A stretch of 60,600 bases of DNA from an uncultured bacterium. Lineage in GTDB: Bacteria; Auribacterota; Tritonobacteria; UBA1439. This document shows positions 1,254 through 44,986 of the stretch, one piece after another. A program made the position numbers and the translations under genes. Location: NCBI GenBank assembly GCA_964460305.1, contig CAYWRA010000003.1:1-60600 (forward strand). The letters are read 5' to 3'. How positions within the stretch are numbered: position 1 is the stretch's first letter; every line of letters begins with the position of its first letter. The notes under the pieces were generated by a model, which was not told where the DNA came from, made no database searches, and was given only the letters and a program-made list of their open reading frames with translations.

Positions 1254-2453
1254 TCAGTAGGTGACCTTGGCTTCCACGACAGTCCCCTTCCCCGGCCGGG
1301 AACTGATTCTCAGCGTTCCGCCCACCGAATCGATCCTCTCCTTCATCCCCAGGATCCCCATGCCCTTGTTGTTCGCCAGGCCGGCAATGTCAAAACCATT
1401 GCCTGCATCCTGGACCCTCAAGATAACGGAGTCGCCCTTCTTGCGGAAACTCATATTTGCTTTTGTGACGCCTGCATATTTAATGAGGTTCGTGACGGCT
1501 TCCTGCGCAACTCGGTACAGCACTATCTCTTTTTGGGGTGTGAGCCTATGATCCATATCCTCCCATGTAAATTCAATCTCCAGCCCGCTCAGTTGTTTAA
1601 TGGATTCGATCTCTTGCTGGAGGCATTCTTTCAGTCCGAGATTGTCCAGCATCGCCGGGCGAAGCTTGACCGACATCTTGCGAACGTCGTCCATGGCCCT
1701 GTCCGTGAACTGAATCGCATCTTCCAGTTCCTGCTGGATCGATCCATCAAGTTCGGGGTGATCCTTTTTGATCATCCCGAGGGTCAGCTTGATGGCGGTC
1801 AAAACCTGTCCGACCTCGTCGTGAAGCTCTTGGGCGATCCTTCTTCTTTCATCCTCTTGACACTCCATCAACGCCCTCGAAAGCTTCTCGAGCTGCTTGG
1901 CTTCATCCGCGCGTTTACGCTCCGTGATGTCCCGAATGATCCCGAAAGACCCCAGAAATTTCTGTTTTTTAGTCTTGGGATCCTCTCCCCATTTGCCGCA
2001 CGAATGTATCTCGGCGCTGCAACAGCCGGGCGACTCCTTCCCCCTGTTTTTCAAGAGAATCCTGACCTCGAGATTCTTCGTGCCCCTGTTTCCCGTCCGC
2101 CGTTCATCGAACAGCTTCGGCGATCCCGTATCGCCCGTCGCCCGTCCTTTGCACATCCGCAATACCCGCAGCCGGCTCACGGCCTTGAGATCGTGGGGAT
2201 GCACCATAACGCCGAAGTTTTTCCCGATAAGCCTGCTCGGCTCATATCCCAACTGCCGCACGGAGTCGCTGATAAAAACGAATCGTCCGCGCGAATCGAG
2301 CAGATAGATTATGTCAGGGATCGTCTGGACGATGATGCTGAATAACTCCTCGTCTACCGTCGCTTCCCTCTCGGCAGCCTCCAGCTTTATCATCCGCCGA
2401 CGGAGCGTCTCCACCTCCCGCCGCAATTGTGACTTTTCTCTGCCGTCTTTCAT
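1254..2453 (-). CDS. PAS-domain sensor histidine kinase (NarX/UhpB-like, HisKA_3)
   Basis: PAS (IPDIIYLLDSRGRFVFIS), H-box ERRRIAQELHDEVGQ, N-box QEAVTNLIKYA, G-boxes DAGNGF and GMGILGM. Confidence 0.92.
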   Translation of the reverse strand: MKDGREKSQLRREVETLRRRMIKLEAAEREATVDEELFSIIVQTIPDIIYLLDSRGRFVFISDSVRQLGYEPSRLIGKNFGVMVHPHDLKAVSRLRVLRMCKGRATGDTGSPKLFDERRTGNRGTKNLEVRILLKNRGKESPGCCSAEIHSCGKWGEDPKTKKQKFLGSFGIIRDITERKRADEAKQLEKLSRALMECQEDERRRIAQELHDEVGQVLTAIKLTLGMIKKDHPELDGSIQQELEDAIQFTDRAMDDVRKMSVKLRPAMLDNLGLKECLQQEIESIKQLSGLEIEFTWEDMDHRLTPQKEIVLYRVAQEAVTNLIKYAGVTKANMSFRKKGDSVILRVQDAGNGFDIAGLANNKGMGILGMKERIDSVGGTLRISSRPGKGTVVEAKVTY

Positions 2454-2559
2454 CTTATGTCTTTATCAATAAGCCTAGTTTGCCCAGGGTGTTTCCGGCC
2501 GGGTGAAACGCGCCTAATATTATATCATTATCCAAGGCCCTCATCACTACTACAGTGAA

Positions 2560-2706
2560 AACAGTTTCTCGTTTCTGGTTTCGGGGACAAGAAACAATCT
2601 GTGCGTAGCAGAGTTCATCCCCCGAATGGGCCGCTATGGGGCGCGGTTAAAATTAATCTGGGGTTTGTTCCTCTGTGATCTCCCCCCAAGGGGCCCCTTC
2701 GGGGAG
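2560..2706. repeat. Composite non-coding repeat element, homologous to 31210-31345
   Basis: The block aacagtttctcgtttcYggtttc..acaagaaaYaatctgt is shared with 31210-31252. It is followed by ggttaaaa..aatctg..gttt..ctctgtg and a CCC(C)AAGGG-CCCTTCGGG palindrome. Confidence 0.7.
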
Positions 2707-2713
2707 TGCCTTC

Positions 2714-3601
2714 TCAGTGGGCCCTGTGATGGTTAACGCAGAAGGCTTTCAGCCCGAGGATTGGGGCCGCGCCGACATAGTAGAGAATGGATTTTCCCAT
2801 CTGGACGACGTTGATAAGCCTGTGCTCTCTGACGACGTATTCATCTCCCATGCCGTCGGCACTCCTGATAGAAAGCGTGGTATTGAACGTATAATATCCG
2901 TCATACTTCGAAAAGACGAGCCTCTCCCCGCCATCGGGAGACGTAAGCCTATGCCGGCGGATATCGTTCCATGGAATATCGGGGAGGCGCTTCGCATCCC
3001 AAGCCACCGCCTCGGCGACCCCGTTCCCGGCCAGCGATGGATCGATCCTGACCTTCCACGTTTTCGCGTTCCAACGAGAAGGCGCCTCCCACTGCCACCT
3101 CCACGATCGCGGCTTGTCACCGGGGCAGTAGACGAAGTTGACGTACGCCGTGAGAACCCCATCTTTTTCCCATGCGACGTACGAGAACCCATACGAGAGA
3201 TAGCTTCGATCGAAACCGGGGGGCATGAAAAATTCCCGCTTTTTTCCGTTCAGGTAGTCGAAGAGGTAAAAGTCCGGCGTAGCTTGCCCGTTTTTGAAAC
3301 GCCTATTCCATTGCGGGGAATAAAGGACAAGGGATGCAAATGGAGAGACGGAGAACGCATCTGCCCTCGCGATACGGCGATGTTTCCTACTCCCCCTGTC
3401 GTAGAGGCAGAGGTCATGGCCTTCCCGAAAGCCGAGCAGGAACGGATAGTAGCGGAGCCGATCCGTCCGGTACACCACTCCCCTGCCGTCGTTCGTGAAC
3501 GAGTACTCATCCACGTTCACTTTGTATCGCGGTCCCGGGATAACCGTCCCGCAGCCGGCGAGTATCACAATGCTCATGACTATCGGAAGCGCATATCTCA
3601 T
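2714..3601 (-). CDS. Hypothetical lipoprotein, possibly TolB/PD40 beta-propeller-like
   Basis: Signal peptide with lipobox LAGC (MRYALPIVMSIVILAGCG); beta-rich aromatic sequence with an SPDGGERLVFS motif. Confidence 0.6.
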   Translation of the reverse strand: MRYALPIVMSIVILAGCGTVIPGPRYKVNVDEYSFTNDGRGVVYRTDRLRYYPFLLGFREGHDLCLYDRGSRKHRRIARADAFSVSPFASLVLYSPQWNRRFKNGQATPDFYLFDYLNGKKREFFMPPGFDRSYLSYGFSYVAWEKDGVLTAYVNFVYCPGDKPRSWRWQWEAPSRWNAKTWKVRIDPSLAGNGVAEAVAWDAKRLPDIPWNDIRRHRLTSPDGGERLVFSKYDGYYTFNTTLSIRSADGMGDEYVVREHRLINVVQMGKSILYYVGAAPILGLKAFCVNHHRAH

Positions 3602-3651
3602 ATCAATAGACCTACCCTGCGAGTACGTCACATAAAAGCTATCGAGCTATC
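3549..3651. repeat. 103-bp perfect direct repeat, copy 1 (leader plus lipoprotein signal peptide)
   Basis: Identical to 5306-5408 by direct comparison. Confidence 0.95.
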
Positions 3652-3663
3652 GAGCAATCGAGA

Positions 3664-5358
3664 TCAATTATATTGGGATTTGGGGTTTGGGATTTGGGAT
3701 TTTATCTGCCCCAGGAACGACACCCCATCCATGTTCGCACCCGCGATCCGGTCGCCATGGCCGAGATAATCCAGGATCGTAGGCGCGACGTCCACGGTGC
3801 GGACCGGGCCGAACGTCCCTTTTCGTATGCGAGGCCCGGCGATGACGAGCGGCACGAGCATCTCACCCTTGAGAAAACCGCCGTGGCCGCTCACGTTGGC
3901 CTTTTCAAAATCCCAATCGTCCGCAGAGACGATGAACAGGTCGCCGGAATAAGGGCTATCAAAAAGCGAGGGGAGCTGTGCCACGACATCGGGGTGGGAA
4001 GCGGCGCAGGTGGCGTCCAACCAGTCGCGCGAGGCGTGGAAACCGCCGTCCATGAGCGCCGAGGCAGCCGGAGTCCCGCGATATCCAAGCGGGTCCTCCC
4101 CCTCCAATACCTCGTACGCAAAGAGCGCTTTGTCCCCCACCCCCTTCCTCTCGATACGGCTCTCACCAGCCTCGGTAAAGATAGCGATCTCGTCCTTTCT
4201 CGGCCGCCCGATCACAAAGCAGATCCCCCTCGTCCGTTTCAACCTATCGACTAGATCGACCGCGCCGCGCGGCGTATGGTAGCGCCGCAACTCTTCCCAA
4301 GGCGGCTGCTCCGTCCACGATCCGGCCTGCTCCGGCGGGACCCAGCGCCCCGCGGGGTTGTGCCGCACGTAGAGCGAGGCGTTCCTGCCATTATTCGCCA
4401 CGATGATGGAAAATTTCCGGTAGTAACACTGCCTTTCCGCTATCGACCTGGAACGATCCACTCGGGATGCGCTATCCAGGACGGGAAGGCCGAGCTCCTC
4501 TGAGAGACGTTTTTCCAACAGCAGATAATTCTCCTTCTTAAGAAGCGTATGCCCGTGGTCCGCAACCATGATCCGGCATACGCTGTCGAGAGCGCCGTTC
4601 CGCGCGAGCGCTTCCATCAACTCGCCGATGGACCCGTCAATCTTCTTAAGATGCTCCCTGGCCTCTCTGGAGAACGAGCCGTGGGCGTGAGAGACGTGAT
4701 CCAGACCCGGGAGGTGAATGAACGTCAGGCGTGGGAAAACCCCTTCCCTGTTCGCGCATTCCACAACGTCCCCGAATTCCTCCATAAAAACCTCGTCCAC
4801 CTTCGCCCAGTTATTGAACATGCAATTGCGCATACCGATCAGGTTGTAGTACATGGAGATGTTATACGTACTCCCCCTGCTCGACCGGTTGCATACGCTC
4901 ACCGTCATCTCGTCTCGGAGAAACTCGAAGAGCGTCCTCCTCTTCATGTATTCGTTCGGGGTATAAAAATCGCTGACGGAAAAAACCTCGTTTCGCCGCA
5001 GTCGCGCCCGATCGAACCAGCGGTTCCCGATGACGTCGACATGCCCAGGATAAGCGCCGCAGATGATCGAGGCTACCGCCGCAGTGGTGATCGATGGGAC
5101 CGCGCTCACGGCGCATCCCGCGGAGCTGCCGCAATCGACGAAATATTTTTTGATCGCTGGAAGCTCGCCGGCGCGGACCATTTCGTCAAACAGATCCAGC
5201 CTACACCCATCGACGAGTATAAGGATGACGTGCCTTCCGTCGACGAGGCAGTTGACCTTGAAATCGACCGGATAGTCGCTCGACCGCACCCGCCCGGACC
5301 CCATGCCGCAGCCGGCGAGTATCACAATGCTCATGACTATCGGAAGCGCATATCTCAT
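3664..5358 (-). CDS. AlkP-superfamily (NPP/phosphodiesterase-like) lipoprotein
   Basis: Lipobox LAGC; ILILVDGCR, PSITT (Thr nucleophile), LPGLDHVSHAHG, VADHGH and SGHGG metal motifs. Confidence 0.85.
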   Translation of the reverse strand: MRYALPIVMSIVILAGCGMGSGRVRSSDYPVDFKVNCLVDGRHVILILVDGCRLDLFDEMVRAGELPAIKKYFVDCGSSAGCAVSAVPSITTAAVASIICGAYPGHVDVIGNRWFDRARLRRNEVFSVSDFYTPNEYMKRRTLFEFLRDEMTVSVCNRSSRGSTYNISMYYNLIGMRNCMFNNWAKVDEVFMEEFGDVVECANREGVFPRLTFIHLPGLDHVSHAHGSFSREAREHLKKIDGSIGELMEALARNGALDSVCRIMVADHGHTLLKKENYLLLEKRLSEELGLPVLDSASRVDRSRSIAERQCYYRKFSIIVANNGRNASLYVRHNPAGRWVPPEQAGSWTEQPPWEELRRYHTPRGAVDLVDRLKRTRGICFVIGRPRKDEIAIFTEAGESRIERKGVGDKALFAYEVLEGEDPLGYRGTPAASALMDGGFHASRDWLDATCAASHPDVVAQLPSLFDSPYSGDLFIVSADDWDFEKANVSGHGGFLKGEMLVPLVIAGPRIRKGTFGPVRTVDVAPTILDYLGHGDRIAGANMDGVSFLGQIKSQIPNPKSQYN

Positions 5359-5408
5359 ATCAATAGACCTACCCTGCGAGTACGTCACATAAAAGCTATC
5401 GAGCTATC
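5306..5408. repeat. 103-bp perfect direct repeat, copy 2
   Basis: Identical to 3549-3651. Confidence 0.95.
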
Positions 5409-5479
5409 AAGCTATCGAGTCTTCGTCCCAACACCCCACGCCTCACGCCCTACACCGCTTGGCATTTGTCACTTCCAAA

Positions 5480-8221
5480 TCACTGTTTCATCATCTGCTT
5501 CAGCAGCTCTTTGGATACCCCTTTTAGCATCTCGCGATTGGCGTCATTCCCCGTCGTCCCCTCGCTTTTTTTCTCCTGCTTTGGTTCGACGGCCCGGTCG
5601 ATTTTCTTCTCGATCTCTTTTCGGAGCCGCGCAGCTCCGATTTCGGCGGCGCAACTCAGTATACCCTTCCTGGCCGCTTCGGCGTCCACATGCGGATGGC
5701 CCAGGGTCCCACCAATCGGTATCGGGAACGGCACGGTTATCCATCCGCCGTCGTCGGGGAAATACGGTTCGAGCTGATTATAATAATCGGAGCCCTTCGG
5801 GAATGAGATACGGCCGCTCAGGTCGAGGGTCCCGCCAGACCCCATCTCACCCGAGAGCAAGAGCCGGAGCGGAGCGGGCTTCTCGGTAACTTCCAGCAGC
5901 ATGTTTCCCGTCCCCCAACGCTCCCCTTTGAGAGTGAAGTCACCCTCGCATTTGGACAAACTCGTTTCAGCGGGGGCTTTTTTAAGAAGATCTCCCATCG
6001 AGAGGAACTCCTTGCACTTGGCTTCCTCGCCGAGGAGGACAAAGAGAGGGGCGATCTCCTGCATCAGGCCGATGGTACGCAACCGGCCCTCATGGATCGA
6101 GAAACGCCCCTTCGCCTGGATGCTCTTCTCTATCGAAGTCCATCCCCTCCCGGCCCCCGACGCGGCGCATTCCAGCGAGAGCCAGCCCGATAGCGCATCC
6201 GAATAGCCGTAGAGGTCCGAGAGGAGCGGAGAGAGCTCCACGCGCGCGGCAGTGCCGTCGATCGCGTAGCGCGGTTCGGTCCCACCCATGTCCGCGGTCA
6301 GTTTCCACGTGCTCTCCCCCCCGTAGAGCGGCAGTGAAAACTCGTTTATGCTCAAAATGCCTTTCGACATGACGATCTTCCCTCGCCCGTCGCGCGCCCT
6401 AAGCTTCCCTAGCCGCAATTCTCCGCACGATATCCTCCCCTTGCCTTCCAATTTCGTCAGGAATGGAGGCGCCGCTAATTGCGGCGCCTGCGGCTCCGTA
6501 GGCGCCGCCTCGGCCGTGGAGGCAAAAGAGATTCCGGGGAACCGCAATGCCTCTTTCTTCACCGGGGAAGCCGCAACAAAATCCGAACTATCTATGACGG
6601 GGAAATTGAATTCGCAGTCGAAGGCGGGCCACTTTTTCAGATCGAAGCTCAGGAACCCCTCACCACAGCTCGATCCGACGCGCACGGTATTCAATCCCAG
6701 CCTCGCGTTCCCATCCGAGGCGGTACAAACGGCATCGCACATTATCGGCTTCCCGAAGCCGGCGAGCTTGAGCTCTCCGCCCGTGACCCTCACGCTGCCG
6801 GAGACGGTTGCGGAGCCGAGCGGCCGGTCAAGCGATCGTTCGAAAAGAACGTCTACGTCCCCCTTCCCCGAGGCAATGATGTTCTGGGCCAACACACTAT
6901 TCAAACCTTTCAGATCGGCGCCGTTCGCCGTGAAGCGCGCTTTTAGTGCGTGCGTTCCCGCCGTCTGGAGAGAGCCATCCGAGGCGAGCCGCAGGCCGTC
7001 AAGGAGCATGGTCGCTCCCGTCCATTGGACGTCCGCGCCCTCACGGCGGAGAGGTATCTTAAACTCCGCGCTGCTTCCCGCGCGCTTCTTGACGTGTGCG
7101 CCATACGACAAGCCGCTCTTGCTCAAATCCATGTCCAGATTGACGTTGAAATTATCTTTCCTCCCATCTATCGCGGCGCTGAACGTCGAACTGCCATCGA
7201 GCGATAGGTCGGATATCCTCAACGTCCCGATCTCATTCCATGGTAAATCCCTGGCCGTAATTTTCAGCCGCGCCTCGGGATCACGCCCGAGGGACAGGAG
7301 CGATCCGCTCATCCCCAGGTGGCCACCGAAAAATTCCGCGTCGATCTTCCTGATGTCCCACATCTTTTCCAGGTATGAGCCTTCTCCCCGAATATCAACG
7401 TTCATCGCCAGGCCGCGATTGGGCGTCACGTATCGTTCTCCATAAGACAACCGGACACCATCTACGGAGAGCTTTGCCTGGAATTGTAGTTTTTTCCCAA
7501 GCCATCCCGAGACCGCCACTGGGCCGGACAGCGAACCGCCCGTTACGTTCATTTCCTTAGTCTCTTTTATCGCACGAGCCAGATCGTCGAGGGGGGCATC
7601 TGCGATCCTGGCTTTCACGGCGAGATACGGAAGCGCCCCTTGAGCAATGTCCGTCGCTTTCAAATCCACGCCTTCCAGTACGGCCTGCCGGCCCCAAGTA
7701 GGATCGGAGATCGTGATGGAACCATCGCTGATGCGGAGACGTGAAATGGAGAACCGTCCCCCCCCGCTTTTCTCACCGGCGGCGGTTTTTCCGGCGCGGT
7801 CATGCGCGGCGGCGGGCTTTTCCTTGCGGAGCAACCCCTCGACGTTCCACTTGCCGTCCTTGTCGCGGATGAGTGCGAGCCTGGGCCGCGTTATCGAGAG
7901 CGAACGCAAGCTCAACGACTTCCAAAGGAGGGGGATGATTCGAACCCTGATAAGTATCTCGTCCGATTGGAGGCATGGGGTACGGCCGTCCTTCTCGAAG
8001 AGGGTGAAATCACGGACGCGGAAGCCGACGCCGTAGAGCAGCGATGGAGACACCGATGAGAACGACACCTTCCGGTCGAGGCCCTTTTCGAGTTCCTCCC
8101 GCGCCTGCTGAAGGAACCAGCCGGACCTTACCGTAATGGTCAGGGCGATCGCCGCGGCTAAAAAGAGCGCGAAGATACAAGCGCCTATAATAAGCATTTT
8201 TCGCATGGATGGAAGTCTCAA
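5480..8221 (-). CDS. AsmA-family (AsmA/TamB-like) envelope protein
   Basis: N-terminal TM anchor, then ELEKGLDRKVSFSSV and LSLRSLSITRPRLALIRDKDGKWNV (AsmA N-terminus), followed by long amphipathic beta-taco-like sequence. Confidence 0.8.
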   Translation of the reverse strand: MRLPSMRKMLIIGACIFALFLAAAIALTITVRSGWFLQQAREELEKGLDRKVSFSSVSPSLLYGVGFRVRDFTLFEKDGRTPCLQSDEILIRVRIIPLLWKSLSLRSLSITRPRLALIRDKDGKWNVEGLLRKEKPAAAHDRAGKTAAGEKSGGGRFSISRLRISDGSITISDPTWGRQAVLEGVDLKATDIAQGALPYLAVKARIADAPLDDLARAIKETKEMNVTGGSLSGPVAVSGWLGKKLQFQAKLSVDGVRLSYGERYVTPNRGLAMNVDIRGEGSYLEKMWDIRKIDAEFFGGHLGMSGSLLSLGRDPEARLKITARDLPWNEIGTLRISDLSLDGSSTFSAAIDGRKDNFNVNLDMDLSKSGLSYGAHVKKRAGSSAEFKIPLRREGADVQWTGATMLLDGLRLASDGSLQTAGTHALKARFTANGADLKGLNSVLAQNIIASGKGDVDVLFERSLDRPLGSATVSGSVRVTGGELKLAGFGKPIMCDAVCTASDGNARLGLNTVRVGSSCGEGFLSFDLKKWPAFDCEFNFPVIDSSDFVAASPVKKEALRFPGISFASTAEAAPTEPQAPQLAAPPFLTKLEGKGRISCGELRLGKLRARDGRGKIVMSKGILSINEFSLPLYGGESTWKLTADMGGTEPRYAIDGTAARVELSPLLSDLYGYSDALSGWLSLECAASGAGRGWTSIEKSIQAKGRFSIHEGRLRTIGLMQEIAPLFVLLGEEAKCKEFLSMGDLLKKAPAETSLSKCEGDFTLKGERWGTGNMLLEVTEKPAPLRLLLSGEMGSGGTLDLSGRISFPKGSDYYNQLEPYFPDDGGWITVPFPIPIGGTLGHPHVDAEAARKGILSCAAEIGAARLRKEIEKKIDRAVEPKQEKKSEGTTGNDANREMLKGVSKELLKQMMKQ

Positions 8222-21833: not shown

Positions 21834-21891
21834 CTACTCCTCCGGAAAAATCCCAAATCCCAAATCCCAAATCCCAAACCCTAATGTCGTA

Positions 21892-31348: not shown

Positions 31349-32230
31349 TTAATGTGCCCGTTTAGCGGCCCCGTTGGGGCTGAGGTTAAACTCCTCCGCC
31401 GGCTCGCCGAATTCCGTGAATTTTCTGAAGACGTCTTCCCTGCTCAAACCCATCTCCTTGAACCGAACCGCCAATGCCTTGGCATTCGCGTCCTGCATCG
31501 GTCCCCAGCACGAATAACATGGGCGTTCCCTGGACGGGCAGAGCGCGCCGCAGCCCGCGGCCGTGACGGGCCCCATGCATGGCTCGCCGTACGCCGTCAA
31601 TACGCAGATCGTCCCCTTGAGTTTGCATTCGACACAAACGCAGTACTCGAGAAAATCGGGTCGCTTGCCAAGCAACAACGAGGTGACAAGCTCCGCCAGG
31701 TCCCTCTCCCCCATCGGGCAGCCCCGCACCGCTCCATCCACCTCCACGAGTTGCGAAATGGGCCTTGCTATGCCTGAGTGGATGACGGACCTGTCCGAGT
31801 AGACCCTCTTTTCCACGTCCGATTCCATCGACGTATTTTTGATCGCCGGTATACCGCCGCAAACGGCGCAGGAGCCGATGGCGATCAGGCACCGGCTCGC
31901 CTTGCGCACCCTTTTCAACTGGGCCGCCTGCCATTCCTCGGTAATCGCCCCTTCGACCAACGCGACGTCGAACGGCCCCTCCTCCGCTCCCCCCGATTGC
32001 AACATCCTGCAATAGACGATCTCCACCGCCCCCAGGGTTTCCAGGATATGCTTCTGGAAATAGATCAACTGAAACTCGCACCCGGCGCAGCAACTGTACT
32101 TGAATATGCCGATCTTGGGCTTTTTCCCCATTGGGATTTGGGGTTTGTCCGCCAGCGGCGGATCAGCCTTGGGCGGAGAATTTGGGATTTTCCCTTGGGA
32201 TTTGGGATTTGGGATTTGGGATTTTTTCAT
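31349..32230 (-). CDS. hydD: [NiFe]-hydrogenase small (delta) subunit; N-terminus extended by a repeat-encoded peptide
   Basis: KYSCCAGCEFQ, VEGAIT, AIGSCAVCGG, GCP, CVCVECK, CMGPVTAAGCGALCPS. The ATG at 32230 is coupled (ATGA) to the gamma stop; an alternative ATG lies at 32131. Confidence 0.9.
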   Translation of the reverse strand: MKKSQIPNPKSQGKIPNSPPKADPPLADKPQIPMGKKPKIGIFKYSCCAGCEFQLIYFQKHILETLGAVEIVYCRMLQSGGAEEGPFDVALVEGAITEEWQAAQLKRVRKASRCLIAIGSCAVCGGIPAIKNTSMESDVEKRVYSDRSVIHSGIARPISQLVEVDGAVRGCPMGERDLAELVTSLLLGKRPDFLEYCVCVECKLKGTICVLTAYGEPCMGPVTAAGCGALCPSRERPCYSCWGPMQDANAKALAVRFKEMGLSREDVFRKFTEFGEPAEEFNLSPNGAAKRAH

Positions 32231-35417: not shown

Positions 35418-36746
35418 TCACGTCCTCGGTCCGCTTCCGCCGGTACCATTCTCTATGATACCACAGACATCCCCCACCCAGGGACGGGCGGGAACGGCGG
35501 AATTTTCCAACCGGTTCGATCGCACAAAGAGAAAGGCATTATCCTGCGTGTGAGCCCCCGTGAATACGCCCCGCGTGGCAAGCTGATTCGCCGCCAGCCT
35601 GGCCTTCAGGTCAAAGCCGCGCTGAGGCAAAACAACCAGGTCGGGAGCACGGTCCGTGTAGGGGCCGAAGAACGTATCTTCGCGTCTGCACAGCCGCCGC
35701 ACCACGGGCCGGCCGCTTACCTTAAGCTCTCCGAAGGCCGCTTCGAGATCGTCCACGACCCGCGCCCTGTCCTTATCGCTAACGCAGCCCCTCGGGTACC
35801 TTCCCGCCGCGTTCACGTATATCCGCGCGGGGTCGAGGGCAAAGGCGCGCGATCCCTCCCCTACTCCTTCGAACGAGTCAACAGTCGGATTTACTATATG
35901 AAGGAACCCCTTTTCTTTCAAGAAATAATTCACGTTGACCTCGCTCTCGATCGTCCCAAACCCGTGATCGGAGAGCATCATAAAAAGATCGTCTTCCCCC
36001 AGCCCATCGTATATCTCACCGATGATTTCGTCTATCCTCTTAAAATGCCCACGGAACGCCTCGTGGTAGGGATGATCCGTTTTCCCGCATGCCTCAAAGA
36101 GGAAATGACTGAGGCGGTCCGTGCTGGTAAAGACAATGAAGAAAAGCCCGCACTCCTCCCGCTCCCAGAGGTAACGGAACGCCCTGATCCGAGCATCGAG
36201 CGTCTCCTCGCAATCACGGAGGAATGCGGCCATGTCGGTATGCCCCTTTGCCGCGTCCACGTCTATCCGGTAGCCGAGTTCCCGTAGTTTCGGAAGGAGG
36301 CTCTTGGGATAGACCGCCCGATCGATGTCAATCGCGACGAAACCGGAAATCATCACCCCATCGAGGGCGCGGGCGGGGTACGTTCCCGGGACGTTTAAAA
36401 TGACTGAGCGCCCAATAGGGAGCCTCTCCCAGAGGGGCGCGGCCTGGAGGTCGTTGAACGTGGGGAACGCGAAGCGGTACGTCCCCGGCGATAGATTCAT
36501 GAACCCATAGATGCCATGCTCGCCGGGATTCTTACCAGTGATCACCGTGCCCCATGCCACGCATGAGACGTCGGGTATGGACGATTCCATCCTCCTCATC
36601 TCGCCGGAGGAAAGGATCTTCCCCATGTTCGGCATGGTTCCGTCGGCCGCAAAGCGCACGATCAGCTCATGGGGAACACCGTCGAGACCGATGATAACGG
36701 CTCGGTTCTTATTTTGGGATTTGGGATTTGGGATTTGGGATTTCAC
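35418..36746 (-). CDS. AlkP-superfamily (NPP/phosphodiesterase-like) protein, no signal peptide
   Basis: IIGLDGVP, IPDVSCVAWGTVITGKNPGEHGIYGF, DRLSH, LSDHGF, TGAH. Confidence 0.88.
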   Translation of the reverse strand: MKSQIPNPKSQNKNRAVIIGLDGVPHELIVRFAADGTMPNMGKILSSGEMRRMESSIPDVSCVAWGTVITGKNPGEHGIYGFMNLSPGTYRFAFPTFNDLQAAPLWERLPIGRSVILNVPGTYPARALDGVMISGFVAIDIDRAVYPKSLLPKLRELGYRIDVDAAKGHTDMAAFLRDCEETLDARIRAFRYLWEREECGLFFIVFTSTDRLSHFLFEACGKTDHPYHEAFRGHFKRIDEIIGEIYDGLGEDDLFMMLSDHGFGTIESEVNVNYFLKEKGFLHIVNPTVDSFEGVGEGSRAFALDPARIYVNAAGRYPRGCVSDKDRARVVDDLEAAFGELKVSGRPVVRRLCRREDTFFGPYTDRAPDLVVLPQRGFDLKARLAANQLATRGVFTGAHTQDNAFLFVRSNRLENSAVPARPWVGDVCGIIENGTGGSGPRT

Positions 36747-42237: not shown

Positions 42238-42611
42238 GATTGCACTTTTTACTTCCACAAAGAGTAAAAGTTAACCTGGCCTACTCACTAACCACCGATG
42301 CCATACTCCAACTTTCAACGTTCTTATCCACGTCCCAACGGGATCCCTTCGGGACGTGGATTCCAACAGTTCTCTCGATTTCTCTTTCCCTCTTTTACTC
42401 TTTGTAAAACAACTGCCTTGTTTTCTCTGCGTACTCTGCGGTGAGCTATTAACCTGATCTATTCATCAACTTTGATCGGCCGATAAATACTTACTGTAGC
42501 GTAAATAGTTATGCAAAACTGCCAACATTCCGCACCAGACTAGTCGGTGCGGGGTTAACCCCGTAGGGTGGATTATTCATCTCACATTTCAAACGAGATG
42601 AATAATCCGGA

Positions 42612-44711: not shown

Positions 44712-44986
44712 AAACCTGATCCATTTACCAACCGCCGCAGGAAAATCCCCCGCCTGCCAACCGGCCTCGTCCCAAAGGGATCCCTTGGGGCGGGCAAGCA
44801 AACCCTTTGCAAAATCCCAACTCCCAAACCCCAAATCCCAAAGTATGAGACGGAGAAACGGGGAAGGGGCGACATAAAGAAATCGCCGGCGATCCCCCGA
44901 AGGGGCCCCTTTGGGGCGTGGATTCCAGCGGTTTTCTTGGTCTCTCTTTTCCTCTTTTACTCTTTGTAAAACAACTGCTCCGCGGT

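Follow-up and report, generated by a model that had tools for sequence, protein, structure and literature searches.

Probable gene conversion between the leaders of two adjacent, unrelated lipoprotein genes in an uncultured groundwater bacterium

Introduction

How do two neighbouring genes with unrelated mature products come to begin with the same stretch of DNA, which of them held it first, and does the duplication serve as a recombination switch? These questions are raised by a locus on contig CAYWRA010000003.1 of an uncultured bacterium (GenBank assembly GCA_964460305.1), located in a stretch of 60,600 nucleotides, hereafter the window, that was analysed as a whole. Two lipoprotein genes, designated A and B in this work, carry here a perfect direct repeat over their upstream regions and signal peptide codons. 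A preliminary description of the sequence explained this repeat by gene conversion or by the recent capture of a signal-peptide cassette, and pointed out that recombination between both copies would cleanly excise gene A. In this work, we examined the extent of the repeat, its reproducibility among assemblies, and the leaders of orthologous genes in related genomes.

Results

Two unrelated lipoprotein genes

The genes and their upstream neighbour are arranged as follows:
2714..3601, minus strand: gene B, conserved lipoprotein of 295 aa, with a model that is beta-propeller-like and has a C-terminal helix
3664..5358, minus strand: gene A, lipoprotein of 564 aa, alkaline-phosphatase superfamily (type I phosphodiesterase / nucleotide pyrophosphatase-like; PF01663)
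5480..8221, minus strand: upstream neighbour, AsmA-family protein (PF05170 / PF05359)

Gene A matched PF01663 with 105.8 bits (cut-off 23; E = 4.6e-30; residues 44-289), and distant ENPP1/NPP matches were obtained in the PDB (E about 6e-6); no NCBIfam equivalog level was reached. Candidate motifs for the metal-binding Asp/His residues and the Thr/Ser nucleophile (VDGCR, PSITT...YPGH, LDHVSH and ADHGH) were read by eye from its translation. Gene B displayed no match in Pfam or NCBIfam; its AlphaFold2 model (pLDDT 74.9, pTM 0.74) resembles weakly the TolB and S9-peptidase propellers (TM about 0.3), which hints at a propeller-like fold. The mature proteins, previously described as an AlkP enzyme and an unrelated beta-rich protein, showed no relationship in our comparison either (best BLASTP E = 0.5), PF01663 being present in A only. 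Other neighbours include a histidine kinase and a LuxR-type response regulator, with no recombinase close by, and an Rfam scan of the window yielded two tRNAs only.

Extent and copy number of the repeat

The repeat and its associated elements are located as follows:
3549..3651, imperfect to 3544-3662, minus strand: repeat copy at gene B, putative native (donor) copy, orthologous to the sequence upstream of B in L037, L038 and L049
5306..5408, imperfect to 5301-5419, minus strand: repeat copy at gene A, putative derived (acceptor) copy; orthologous A genes have other leaders
3637..3662, minus strand: octamer array CTCGATAG x3.2, 5' edge of copy B (TRF)
5394..5419, minus strand: octamer array CTCGATAG x3.2, 5' edge of copy A (TRF and alignment)
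3611..3633, minus strand: ATGTGACGTACTCGCAGGG, the conserved 5'UTR block, with the Shine-Dalgarno-like GGTAGG after it, in copy B; twin at 5368-5390 in copy A
3673..3702, minus strand: AAATCCC heptamer array x4.3, 3' end of gene A (TRF), into which the final ~10 codons of this gene extend

Direct reading of the sequence, a repeat search and a pairwise alignment agree on the 103-bp perfect direct repeat that had been described, with about 50 bp of upstream sequence plus leader codons; 103/103 nucleotides are identical between copies that start 1757 nt apart. Each copy comprises 50 nt 5' of the ATG and 53 nt of coding sequence, the latter consisting of MRYALPIVMSIVILAGC and two of the three bases that encode the +2 Gly. 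Identity stops, as had been stated, just past the lipobox Cys, at the third base of this codon (GGC in A vs GGG in B). The imperfect extension amounts to 114-119 nt at 97-98% identity, and its mismatches fall in the distal octamer array, two of them within the array of copy A as aligned. Copy B spans nearly all of the A-B intergenic spacer in addition to the B signal peptide. The outer ~25-29 nt of the repeat correspond to the CTCGATAG array, a type found in at least 25 other intergenic regions of this genome; thus, the private part of the repeat is ~85-90 nt.

A 53-nt probe had 2 exact matches in the window vs 0 in 100 shuffles. The genome-wide search for further copies that had been proposed returned these two only, both in DNA and as peptide with up to 7 substitutions, and none was found in seven other family genomes. 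Genes A and B and their 3' flanks had no other repeat of 20 nt or longer in common. In a genome-wide screen for gene pairs with a shared N-terminus and diverging downstream parts, the matches listed included only paralogues and spurious ORFs arising through dispersed repeats; among these matches, A-B appears to be the only pair of unrelated genes sharing a leader. The genome is full of short dispersed repeats, AAATCCC arrays with at least two exact units being present at 234 loci. In addition, its two EF-Tu copies are 99% identical across 1360 nt.

A shared lipoprotein signal peptide

Both signal peptides were delimited by eye from the translations:
3548..3601, minus strand: signal peptide of B, 18 codons, peptide identical to that of A
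5305..5358, minus strand: signal peptide of A, 18 codons, lipobox L-A-G-C, Gly at +2

The leader is organized as M-R-Y / ALPIVMSIVIL / L-A-G-C, with the Cys at position 17 of the translation. It displays the features of a bacterial lipoprotein (SPase II) signal peptide, i.e., a short positive n-region, a hydrophobic h-region and a lipobox of the form [LVI][ASTVI][GAS]C some 15-25 residues in, and processing by this route is predicted. A lipobox occupies the aligned position in all A and B orthologues except the A of genome G008, and the leaders of B orthologues follow the pattern MRYALPII(T/I)..(S/P)GCG.

The GGTAGG motif of the cassette sits 9 nt 5' of the ATG. An upstream GTG was considered as an alternative start and is disfavoured, since it is preceded by no Shine-Dalgarno box and its segment is deleted in the relative L035, where Shine-Dalgarno box, N9 spacer and ATG are all retained; exact-protein look-ups with the GTG start matched nothing, and those with the ATG start matched contigs. 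In the public annotation, both genes are begun at an internal Met, which cuts off half of the signal peptide. A sigma-70 scan gave a single match, lying across the start codon, and thus provides no grounds for a promoter within the cassette; the cassette RNA does not fold more stably than its shuffles (z = +1.27), arguing against a structured leader.

The repeat in independent assemblies

The genome is a metagenome-assembled genome (MAG) in 173 contigs, and a repeat in such a genome could derive from assembly or binning, either as a strain chimera or as a collapsed or duplicated segment. Against this, seven MEGAHIT contigs assembled at k=127, a k-mer length that exceeds that of the repeat, reproduce identical junctions at 99.6-100% identity; they come from seven independent assemblies, one per sequencing run (ERR1527267, -72, -76, -81, -82, -83 and -85), all of them from one site (trench water of the Little Forest Legacy Site), one project (PRJEB14718) and one assembler, which leaves a slight chance of a population-level artefact common to all. 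Three of these contigs (L034, L047 and L048) begin in AsmA and traverse both copies: L048 displays the order AsmA, leader, A, leader and 138 codons of B, and L034 and L047 stop at or just beyond the second copy. An assembly artefact, one of the outcomes under which the earlier reading would have fallen, is already close to refuted by these contigs, and we give it hardly any credence.

The same assemblies bear on the excision of gene A. The geometry agrees with the preliminary description, since the direct repeats flank exactly one gene and B would retain an intact leader after recombination. Furthermore, the Logan contig L032 (ERR1527276) joins the 3' end of AsmA and the sequence upstream of A, via the repeat, to mature B, which is the structure predicted for the deletion product. 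However, L032 stems from a k=31 assembly and is the sole contig with this form; the deletion form adds no 31-mer to those of the full form, so that L032 may represent a path through the collapsed repeat, and in L030, assembled from this run at k=127, the 3' end of A lies before B. Assemblies made at short k are likely to break at the repeat, as seen in L032. None of the seven k=127 contigs carries the deletion, the surrounding genes (AsmA, histidine kinase, response regulator) include no recombinase, and the A-B pair is retained in all relatives complete enough to judge. The repeat has the arrangement that clean excision calls for; excision itself is hypothetical, and the sole contig in its favour is ambiguous. 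We consider it quite unlikely that the repeats constitute a working switch, by which trench-water cells would lose the AlkP-type phosphodiesterase gene through a 1757-bp deletion and could regain or amplify it, in a recombinase-free form of phase variation. If this were true, it would provide on/off control of a phosphate-scavenging surface enzyme, and recurrent homogenisation of the leaders would be selected as a means of keeping the switch functional.

Leaders and gene order in related genomes

Orthologues of gene A were identified in 8 related genomes. Gene B is always located directly downstream of A, and AsmA precedes the pair also in L036-L038. The comparison of orthologous signal peptides, which had been suggested as a check, revealed that the A and B leaders differ in all relatives examined, the L035 lineage excepted; adjacent A and B genes with two different leaders were found in G001-G004, G006, G008, L036, L037 and L038. 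In L037, L038 and L049, A begins with MRNLRFKQLA...TGCG, and the sequence upstream of B consists of an AAATCCC array, ATGTGACGTACTCGCAGGG, n, AGG, N9 and ATG AGA TAT GCN CTT CCG. The B orthologues of these three species carry the MRYALPI leader, preceded by the Shine-Dalgarno box and by a 19-nt 5'UTR block identical to that of our genome, although the genes share only about 72% of their DNA sequence. The AAATCCC array occupies the matching position in these three relatives, which argues that copy B stands in its ancestral context.

BLASTN against L038 and L049 yielded an unbroken alignment from A via the spacer into B, and the copy before A matched only the B leader of these relatives (78.8% over 85 nt). 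Upstream of A, the intergenic sequence of the closest relatives is unalignable. The cassette is native to B in three species in which the leader of A differs, suggesting that the B region overwrote that of A, i.e., that the direction was B to A.

These comparisons also bear on an older origin of the identity, either as an ancient leader kept by selection on the peptide or as a mobile 'portable leader' that inserts before genes. The 19-nt 5'UTR block is indeed unusually conserved across species. Nevertheless, A orthologues carry other leaders, and the identity between copies includes silent and non-coding sites. A mobile element or MITE carrying the leader was rejected as well, with two copies in this genome, none in the seven family genomes, ends lacking terminal inverted repeats and no target duplications. 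On the orthologue comparison, both variants, including the ancient leader under protein-level selection that had been named as a refuting outcome, are already refuted, and their probability is negligible.

Searches for further B genes were of limited yield: gene B alone had no relatives in JGI metagenomes, and an alignment-based search of the same metagenomes gave 4 loci, L042 and L043 being known contigs and L044 and L045 sharing 46% identity. A recent horizontal transfer of the 'MKRY..' B leader between clades was considered and discarded, as the G001 and L036 leaders align at ~74%, like their genes.

A proposed conversion tract bounded by short homologies

Taken together, the differing leaders of A orthologues, the orthology of the cassette to the B region and the identity of silent and non-coding sites argue for gene conversion (non-reciprocal recombination) within a conserved two-gene lipoprotein unit, an explanation that we regard as highly probable and that agrees with the one first proposed. 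Regarding the capture reading, replacement of the leader is supported, whereas the gain of an export signal is not, given that A encoded a lipoprotein, lipobox included, before the event.

In the scenario that we favour, the ancestral order would have been AsmA, A with its own lipoprotein leader, and B with its own leader. Some 105-115 nt from before B would then have overwritten the equivalent stretch before A; the copied tract would comprise the A-B spacer, with its octamer array, 5'UTR block and Shine-Dalgarno box, and the B signal peptide as far as the lipidated Cys. The ends of the tract were presumably set by short sequences common to both sites beforehand. On the 5' side, the homology would be the CTCGATAG octamer array, as judged from the present-day sequence; on the 3' side, it would be the lipobox codons (C)CGGCTGCGG, present in native A and B leaders. 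Native A leaders end in ...ACCGGCTGCGGCATGGGG and those of B in ...GCCGGCTGCGGGACGG, the lipobox codons CCGGCTGCGG being already common to both. A second recombination joint in the family falls at the place that corresponds to the end of the cassette: G001 and L049 share 85% identity in A and 94% in mature B, with an unalignable stretch of spacer and leader after which homology returns at the Cys codon. These observations are consistent with a homology-bounded mechanism.

The same homologies could have acted in two steps instead. Unequal crossing-over between sister chromosomes at the A/B lipobox codons would duplicate A behind a B-type leader, and a deletion between octamer arrays would then remove the original copy with the leader of A. 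Both homologies are present, CCGGCTGCGG at the lipoboxes and CTCGATAG arrays in the spacers, and short dispersed repeats able to mediate deletions are abundant in the genome. However, this route requires two rare scarless events, and a single short tract of conversion or template switching is the simpler account; no relative or assembly was found to contain two A genes as an intermediate, and we consider the two-step route improbable.

Returning to gene conversion, the L035 lineage (run SRR23086382) informs on the number of events. Its A gene is 85.4% identical in DNA to that of our genome and carries a B-type leader, MRYALPVVMSIFVLSGCG, which matches the leader of our A at 45/54 nt, with a 13-nt indel upstream. 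Concerted evolution would leave such a pattern, with 103/103 identical positions within one genome against 45/54 between lineages. At ~15% divergence, 103 nt would be free of differences with a probability of 0.85^103 (about 5e-8); set against the diverged B-type leader of L035, the perfect repeat points to a conversion that came later or was a second one. These data suggest a minimum of two such events: either an old capture was re-homogenised by concerted evolution, or capture occurred twice. No B gene was obtained for the L035 organism, also with B residues 1-120 as the query for partial genes, and these two histories are not separable for this reason.

Discussion

Overall, the repeat is real and probably represents a clean, but fairly ordinary, gene conversion. 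Both genes encoded lipoproteins before the event, so the exchange would be like-for-like and was probably near-neutral; its sole predictable effect is that A and B would share a translation-initiation region and a Sec/Lgt/LspA entry signal. It opens no new mechanism and resolves no long-standing question. Its interest lies in providing a clean natural example of export signals exchanged between unrelated genes: the joints lie in a common intergenic repeat and exactly at the lipobox codons, which no lipoprotein gene lacks, indicating that few common bases may suffice. Further, it illustrates how a 5' module evolves in concert in a free-living groundwater bacterium of a barely studied candidate phylum, with relatives labelled Candidatus Aureabacteria or Auribacterota, and outside the pathogen antigen families that are the usual setting for such cassettes.

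Among those families, the Vlp, Vsp, Vpma and Vsa loci of Mycoplasma have near-identical promoter/5'UTR and signal peptide regions and differing mature parts; they are multigene, repetitive surface antigens associated with site-specific recombinases and inverted sites. Recombination at or just past the leader is common to these loci and to ours. Unlike them, the pair described here consists of an enzyme and a propeller-like protein, its repeats are direct and have no adjacent recombinase, and both genes possess a full start. In Borrelia burgdorferi, the upstream homology box genes (erp, ospE/F-related, mlp) display recombined 5' flanks and leaders common to different lipoprotein genes. These belong to plasmid-borne, many-copy paralogous families, in contrast to the single chromosomal pair of the present genome.

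The closest resemblance in layout is with Borrelia hermsii, in which a block of 61-62 bp, part 5'UTR and part the first 26 bp of coding sequence, is common to Vlp and Vsp genes (PMC6011951). In B. hermsii, as proposed for our genome, non-reciprocal gene conversion crosses over at a short 5'UTR and N-terminal block on non-homologous lipoprotein genes. The block of our genome is longer, at 103 bp (50 nt in the 5'UTR, 53 nt coding), and spans the whole signal peptide to the Cys. Also in contrast to B. hermsii, its two copies are both located on complete, adjacent and co-oriented genes of a conserved operon-like unit, with no silent archive, single expression site, downstream homology sequence or telomeric context, and the organism is free-living, with no sign of programmed switching.

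Finally, the locus resembles the concerted evolution of tuf-type genes, in which non-reciprocal copying holds two chromosomal segments identical while orthologues diverge. Classical concerted evolution acts on whole paralogous genes, whereas here it would act on a ~110-nt 5' module of non-homologous genes, bounded by very short homologies.

A perfect repeat heads two unrelated lipoprotein genes

The genes concerned are adjacent on the minus strand, with an AsmA-family gene upstream of A, and a HisKA_3 histidine kinase gene and a LuxR-type response regulator gene downstream of the pair:

5358..3664, minus strand: gene A, 564 aa
3601..2714, minus strand: gene B, 295 aa
5306-5408: repeat, copy A
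3549-3651: repeat, copy B

Direct reading of the sequence, a repeat search and a pairwise alignment agreed that the two copies are identical at 103/103 positions; beyond them about 11 further bases match save two mismatches, and then identity ends. Each copy comprises 50 nt 5' of the ATG, in which an array of CTCGATAG octamers takes up the outermost 25-29 nt of the repeat, and a coding part of 53 nt, namely MRYALPIVMSIVILAGC plus the first two bases of the +2 Gly codon (GGC in A, GGG in B). Past this Gly, A and B are unrelated (best BLASTP E = 0.5). The preliminary description, which had reported two unrelated mature proteins sharing a 103-bp leader made of about 50 bp of upstream sequence and the codons to just past the lipobox Cys, is thus borne out. 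It had also proposed a search for more copies; across the whole 2.66-Mb, 173-contig genome, BLASTN and a six-frame peptide search allowing up to seven substitutions recovered these two only, and a 53-nt probe gave 2 exact matches in the window and 0 in 100 dinucleotide-preserving shuffles.

Gene A matches PF01663 (type I phosphodiesterase/nucleotide pyrophosphatase) at 105.8 bits (cut-off 23) and reached no NCBIfam equivalog, the closest solved structures being ENPP/NPP enzymes (E about 1e-5). Gene B matched nothing in Pfam or NCBIfam; its AlphaFold2 model, built on 12 homologues (pLDDT 74.9, pTM 0.74), consists largely of beta-strands, plus a long helix at the C-terminus, and only weakly resembles TolB and S9-peptidase beta-propellers (TM about 0.3). 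Both proteins have a predicted, textbook lipoprotein signal peptide with the lipobox L-A-G-C, read by eye. Public annotation starts both genes at the internal Met codon 9, MSIVILAGCG (window 3577 and 5334; P0001, 287 aa, and P0060, 556 aa), which cuts off half of each signal peptide together with the n-region; orthologues and Shine-Dalgarno spacing support a start at MRYALP. Elsewhere in the genome, contigs C97, C99 and C127 hold a large tandem family of many near-identical paralogues, secreted proteins about 260 aa long that have signal peptides in common and the conserved core VATPFPQCDA..KKFFCTVAGSWGLKTG.

The repeat in independent assemblies

The concern that the repeat might be an assembly artefact, raised in the preliminary description, was tested with independent public MEGAHIT assemblies. 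Seven contigs, named k127 and each from a different run, gave gap-free alignments to the window at 99.6-100% identity. Four (L030, L031, L033 and L046) extend from within A across the repeat into B and further, and three (L034, L047 and L048) run from AsmA through the repeat and A to the second copy; L048 goes 138 codons into B, and so holds both copies in one contig, flanked throughout by unique sequence. The repeat, at 103 nt (perfect) or 114 nt (near-perfect), is shorter than a k-mer of 127, so real reads must underlie each junction, and an artefact is hardly credible. Contigs with exactly these proteins come from ENA project PRJEB14718, on Little Forest Legacy Site trench water near Sydney.

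L046 (ERR1527282 k127_45253) has three substitutions in gene B, at the equivalents of window 3476, 3481 and 3529, two of which, both C-to-A, create in-frame stops; these may be low-coverage errors instead of a pseudogene allele. In the one sample behind L048, copy B has a lone A-to-T at window 3610, a single base downstream of the Shine-Dalgarno box, where copy A is unaltered; this change is either a sequencing error or a first post-conversion mutation.

The layout of the repeat means that recombination joining the two copies would excise gene A precisely, with B retaining its whole leader. A Logan contig (L032, ERR1527276_16412, run ERR1527276) has this deletion form, with window 6046..5306 joined via the repeat to 3662..2181, so that the AsmA 3' end and the sequence upstream of A lead directly to mature B. 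However, Logan assembly uses k=31, and every 31-mer of the deletion form is also present in the full form, so the contig may be an assembly path and not a real variant; L030, a k127 contig of the same run, keeps A before B, the deletion is found in 0/7 k127 contigs, no recombinase lies nearby, and the pair is kept in every relative genome complete enough to judge. Programmed or frequent excision of A is therefore very improbable.

Relatives and the probable direction of copying

The relatives are labelled Candidatus Aureabacteria, a candidate phylum also named Auribacterota (PMC9324843). In the congeneric genome G001, A and B are neighbours with the same orientation; they are also adjacent in the family genomes G002, G003, G004 and G006, in the same-class genome G008 and in metagenome contigs L036, L037 and L038. 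In all of these the two leaders differ, with examples as follows.

Leaders of A and B in three relatives
G001: A leader, MRNLRFKQLADILWLAGLAMVITGCG; B leader, MKRYFPFFVVSFFALVGCG
L036: A leader, VLKKTFFKAALVAGACLVLAGCG; B leader, MKRYLPFFVAGLFVLAGCG
L038: A leader, MRNLRFKQLANILWLAGAAMVITGCG; B leader, MRYALPIITVIIIFSGCG

Before the event, A therefore already encoded a lipoprotein and had a leader of its own, and the common leader of the present genome is the derived state; the orthologues thus exclude an ancient leader held by protein-level selection, the other objection entertained beforehand.

The source of the leader is indicated by L037, L038 and L049, from other species with a B leader of the MRYALP type, whose B protein is just 67-69% identical to the present one. 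Upstream of B, they have an AAATCCC array at the A end, (C)ATGTGACGTACTCGCAGGGAAGG, nine bases and ATG/GTG AGA TAT GCA CTT CCG AT; the present genome has an AAATCCC array, the 19-nt block unchanged, GGTAGG, nine bases and ATG AGA TAT GCG CTT CCG AT, and, unlike these three, an octamer array between the heptamers and the 19-nt block. BLASTN of the locus against L038 and L049 runs unbroken from A through spacer and leader to B, and copy A matches solely their B leader (78.8% over 85 nt). The AsmA stop lies 60 nt from the repeat, and no remnant of an A-type leader is left in this interval. From these alignments, the copy in front of B is taken as the original, so that A's leader would have been overwritten by the spacer and leader of B. 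Signal-peptide cassette capture or gene conversion, as first proposed, was right in its main point.

Tract ends and a probable mechanism

Identity ends on the 3' side at the string GGCTGCGG. The native A leader ends in ACCGGCTGCGGCATGGG in L037 and L038, and the B leader in GCCGGCTGCGGGACGG in this genome and GCTGGCTGCGGGACGG in L036; native A and B leaders have 8-10 bases of GGCTGCGG in common because both encode the lipobox end and Gly. The 5' edge falls within the CTCGATAG array, which many intergenic regions of this genome carry. We infer a short conversion or template-switch tract that would have begun and finished in pre-existing homologies, the octamer array 5' and the lipobox-Gly codons 3'. 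Unequal crossing-over at the lipoboxes followed by deletion between octamer arrays would give the same end product in two steps, and we consider this route unlikely.

Short repeats are common in this genome. The CTCGATAG arrays (window 3637-3662 and 5394-5419; C1:39837, C7:14223, C14:33690, C59:13000, C67:3416, C110:6605 and others) occur in at least 25 other intergenic regions, usually just 5' of promoter-like or ribosome-binding sequence; they have 2-4 units with 1-base differences between units, and typically CTTTTTA next or promoter-like/Shine-Dalgarno sequence directly downstream. AAATCCC arrays (for example window 3673-3702, 21848-21878, 32195-32224, 36713-36743 and 44812-44842) number 234 loci with at least two exact units and 50 with at least three, and are mainly intergenic, often joined with TTTGTCA, GCGTGGG and CTCGATAG arrays; the one at the end of gene A has a matching position in related species, and the A reading frame enters it, giving the protein tail ..IKSQIPNPKSQYN. 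A dispersed repeat of about 115 nt, seemingly MITE- or REP-like, has 42 near-full-length copies and 67 BLAST hits (window 42449-42563; C71:10745, C2:27857, C90:526, C16:12990 and others). In all, the genome has 1606 repeat pairs of at least 95% identity.

Evidence for more than one event

Among the A orthologues found, the closest is P0014 (86% protein and 85.4% DNA identity), on Logan contig L035; a tree built from mature A places its lineage as sister to this genome. P0014 has a leader of the B type, MRYALPVVMSIFVLSGCG, with octamers and AGCAGGGCAGG-N9-ATG 5' of it; 13 nt of the 5'UTR block are missing and the leader is identical to this genome's at 45/54 positions. The B gene of this sister organism was sought and not recovered. 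Had capture preceded the lineage split, the copies in the present genome would be expected to be no less divergent than the orthologues, and the chance of 0 differences in 103 nt at about 15% divergence is 0.85^103, about 5e-8; perfect identity thus implies later re-homogenisation (concerted evolution) or independent capture in both lineages.

DNA identity between G001 and L049 is 85.3% for A and 94.3% for mature B, the spacer and leader are unalignable, and homology restarts at the Cys codon; another recombination joint is seen here at the same spot, which makes the lipobox edge a recurrent crossover point in the family. Most simply, it recurs because conserved sequence starts there after a fast-evolving spacer and leader. 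The G001 locus (C64, L019) is mosaic relative to L049, and its A-B spacer of about 345 nt, flanked by tandem CACGGAG units and, at the opposite end, by CTCCGTG units, has the look of a small insertion element.

Function of the cassette and comparison with known systems

A sigma-70 scan found no promoter in the cassette, its sole hit overlapping the start codon, and RNA folding gave no stable structure (z = +1.27). A Shine-Dalgarno-like box, GG(T/A/C)AGG, is retained nine bases 5' of the ATG in all versions, which supports this start. An in-frame upstream GTG is less likely, as it has no such box and L035 has lost the segment that holds it. The 19-nt block does not vary between species and may act in regulation. 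As both leaders were already lipoprotein leaders, the swap was probably near-neutral; a speculative side effect would be equal translation initiation and targeting for two proteins always found together.

Similar arrangements occur in Mycoplasma variable lipoprotein loci and Borrelia burgdorferi upstream-homology-box genes. Nearest in anatomy, among described elements, is the upstream homology sequence of Borrelia hermsii, a stretch of 61-62 bp that begins just 5' of the transcription start and takes in the first 26 bp of the coding region, and which is common to non-homologous Vlp and Vsp lipoprotein genes and serves as a gene-conversion crossover point (PMC6011951). The present pair resembles these systems in the shared 5' module and the conversion mechanism; unlike them, it has no silent-copy archive, single expression site or downstream element, and no recombinase or inverted sites. 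The finding is real and is accounted for by a known process, and it fits best under concerted evolution, with short-tract gene conversion acting on the 5' module of two non-homologous neighbours.
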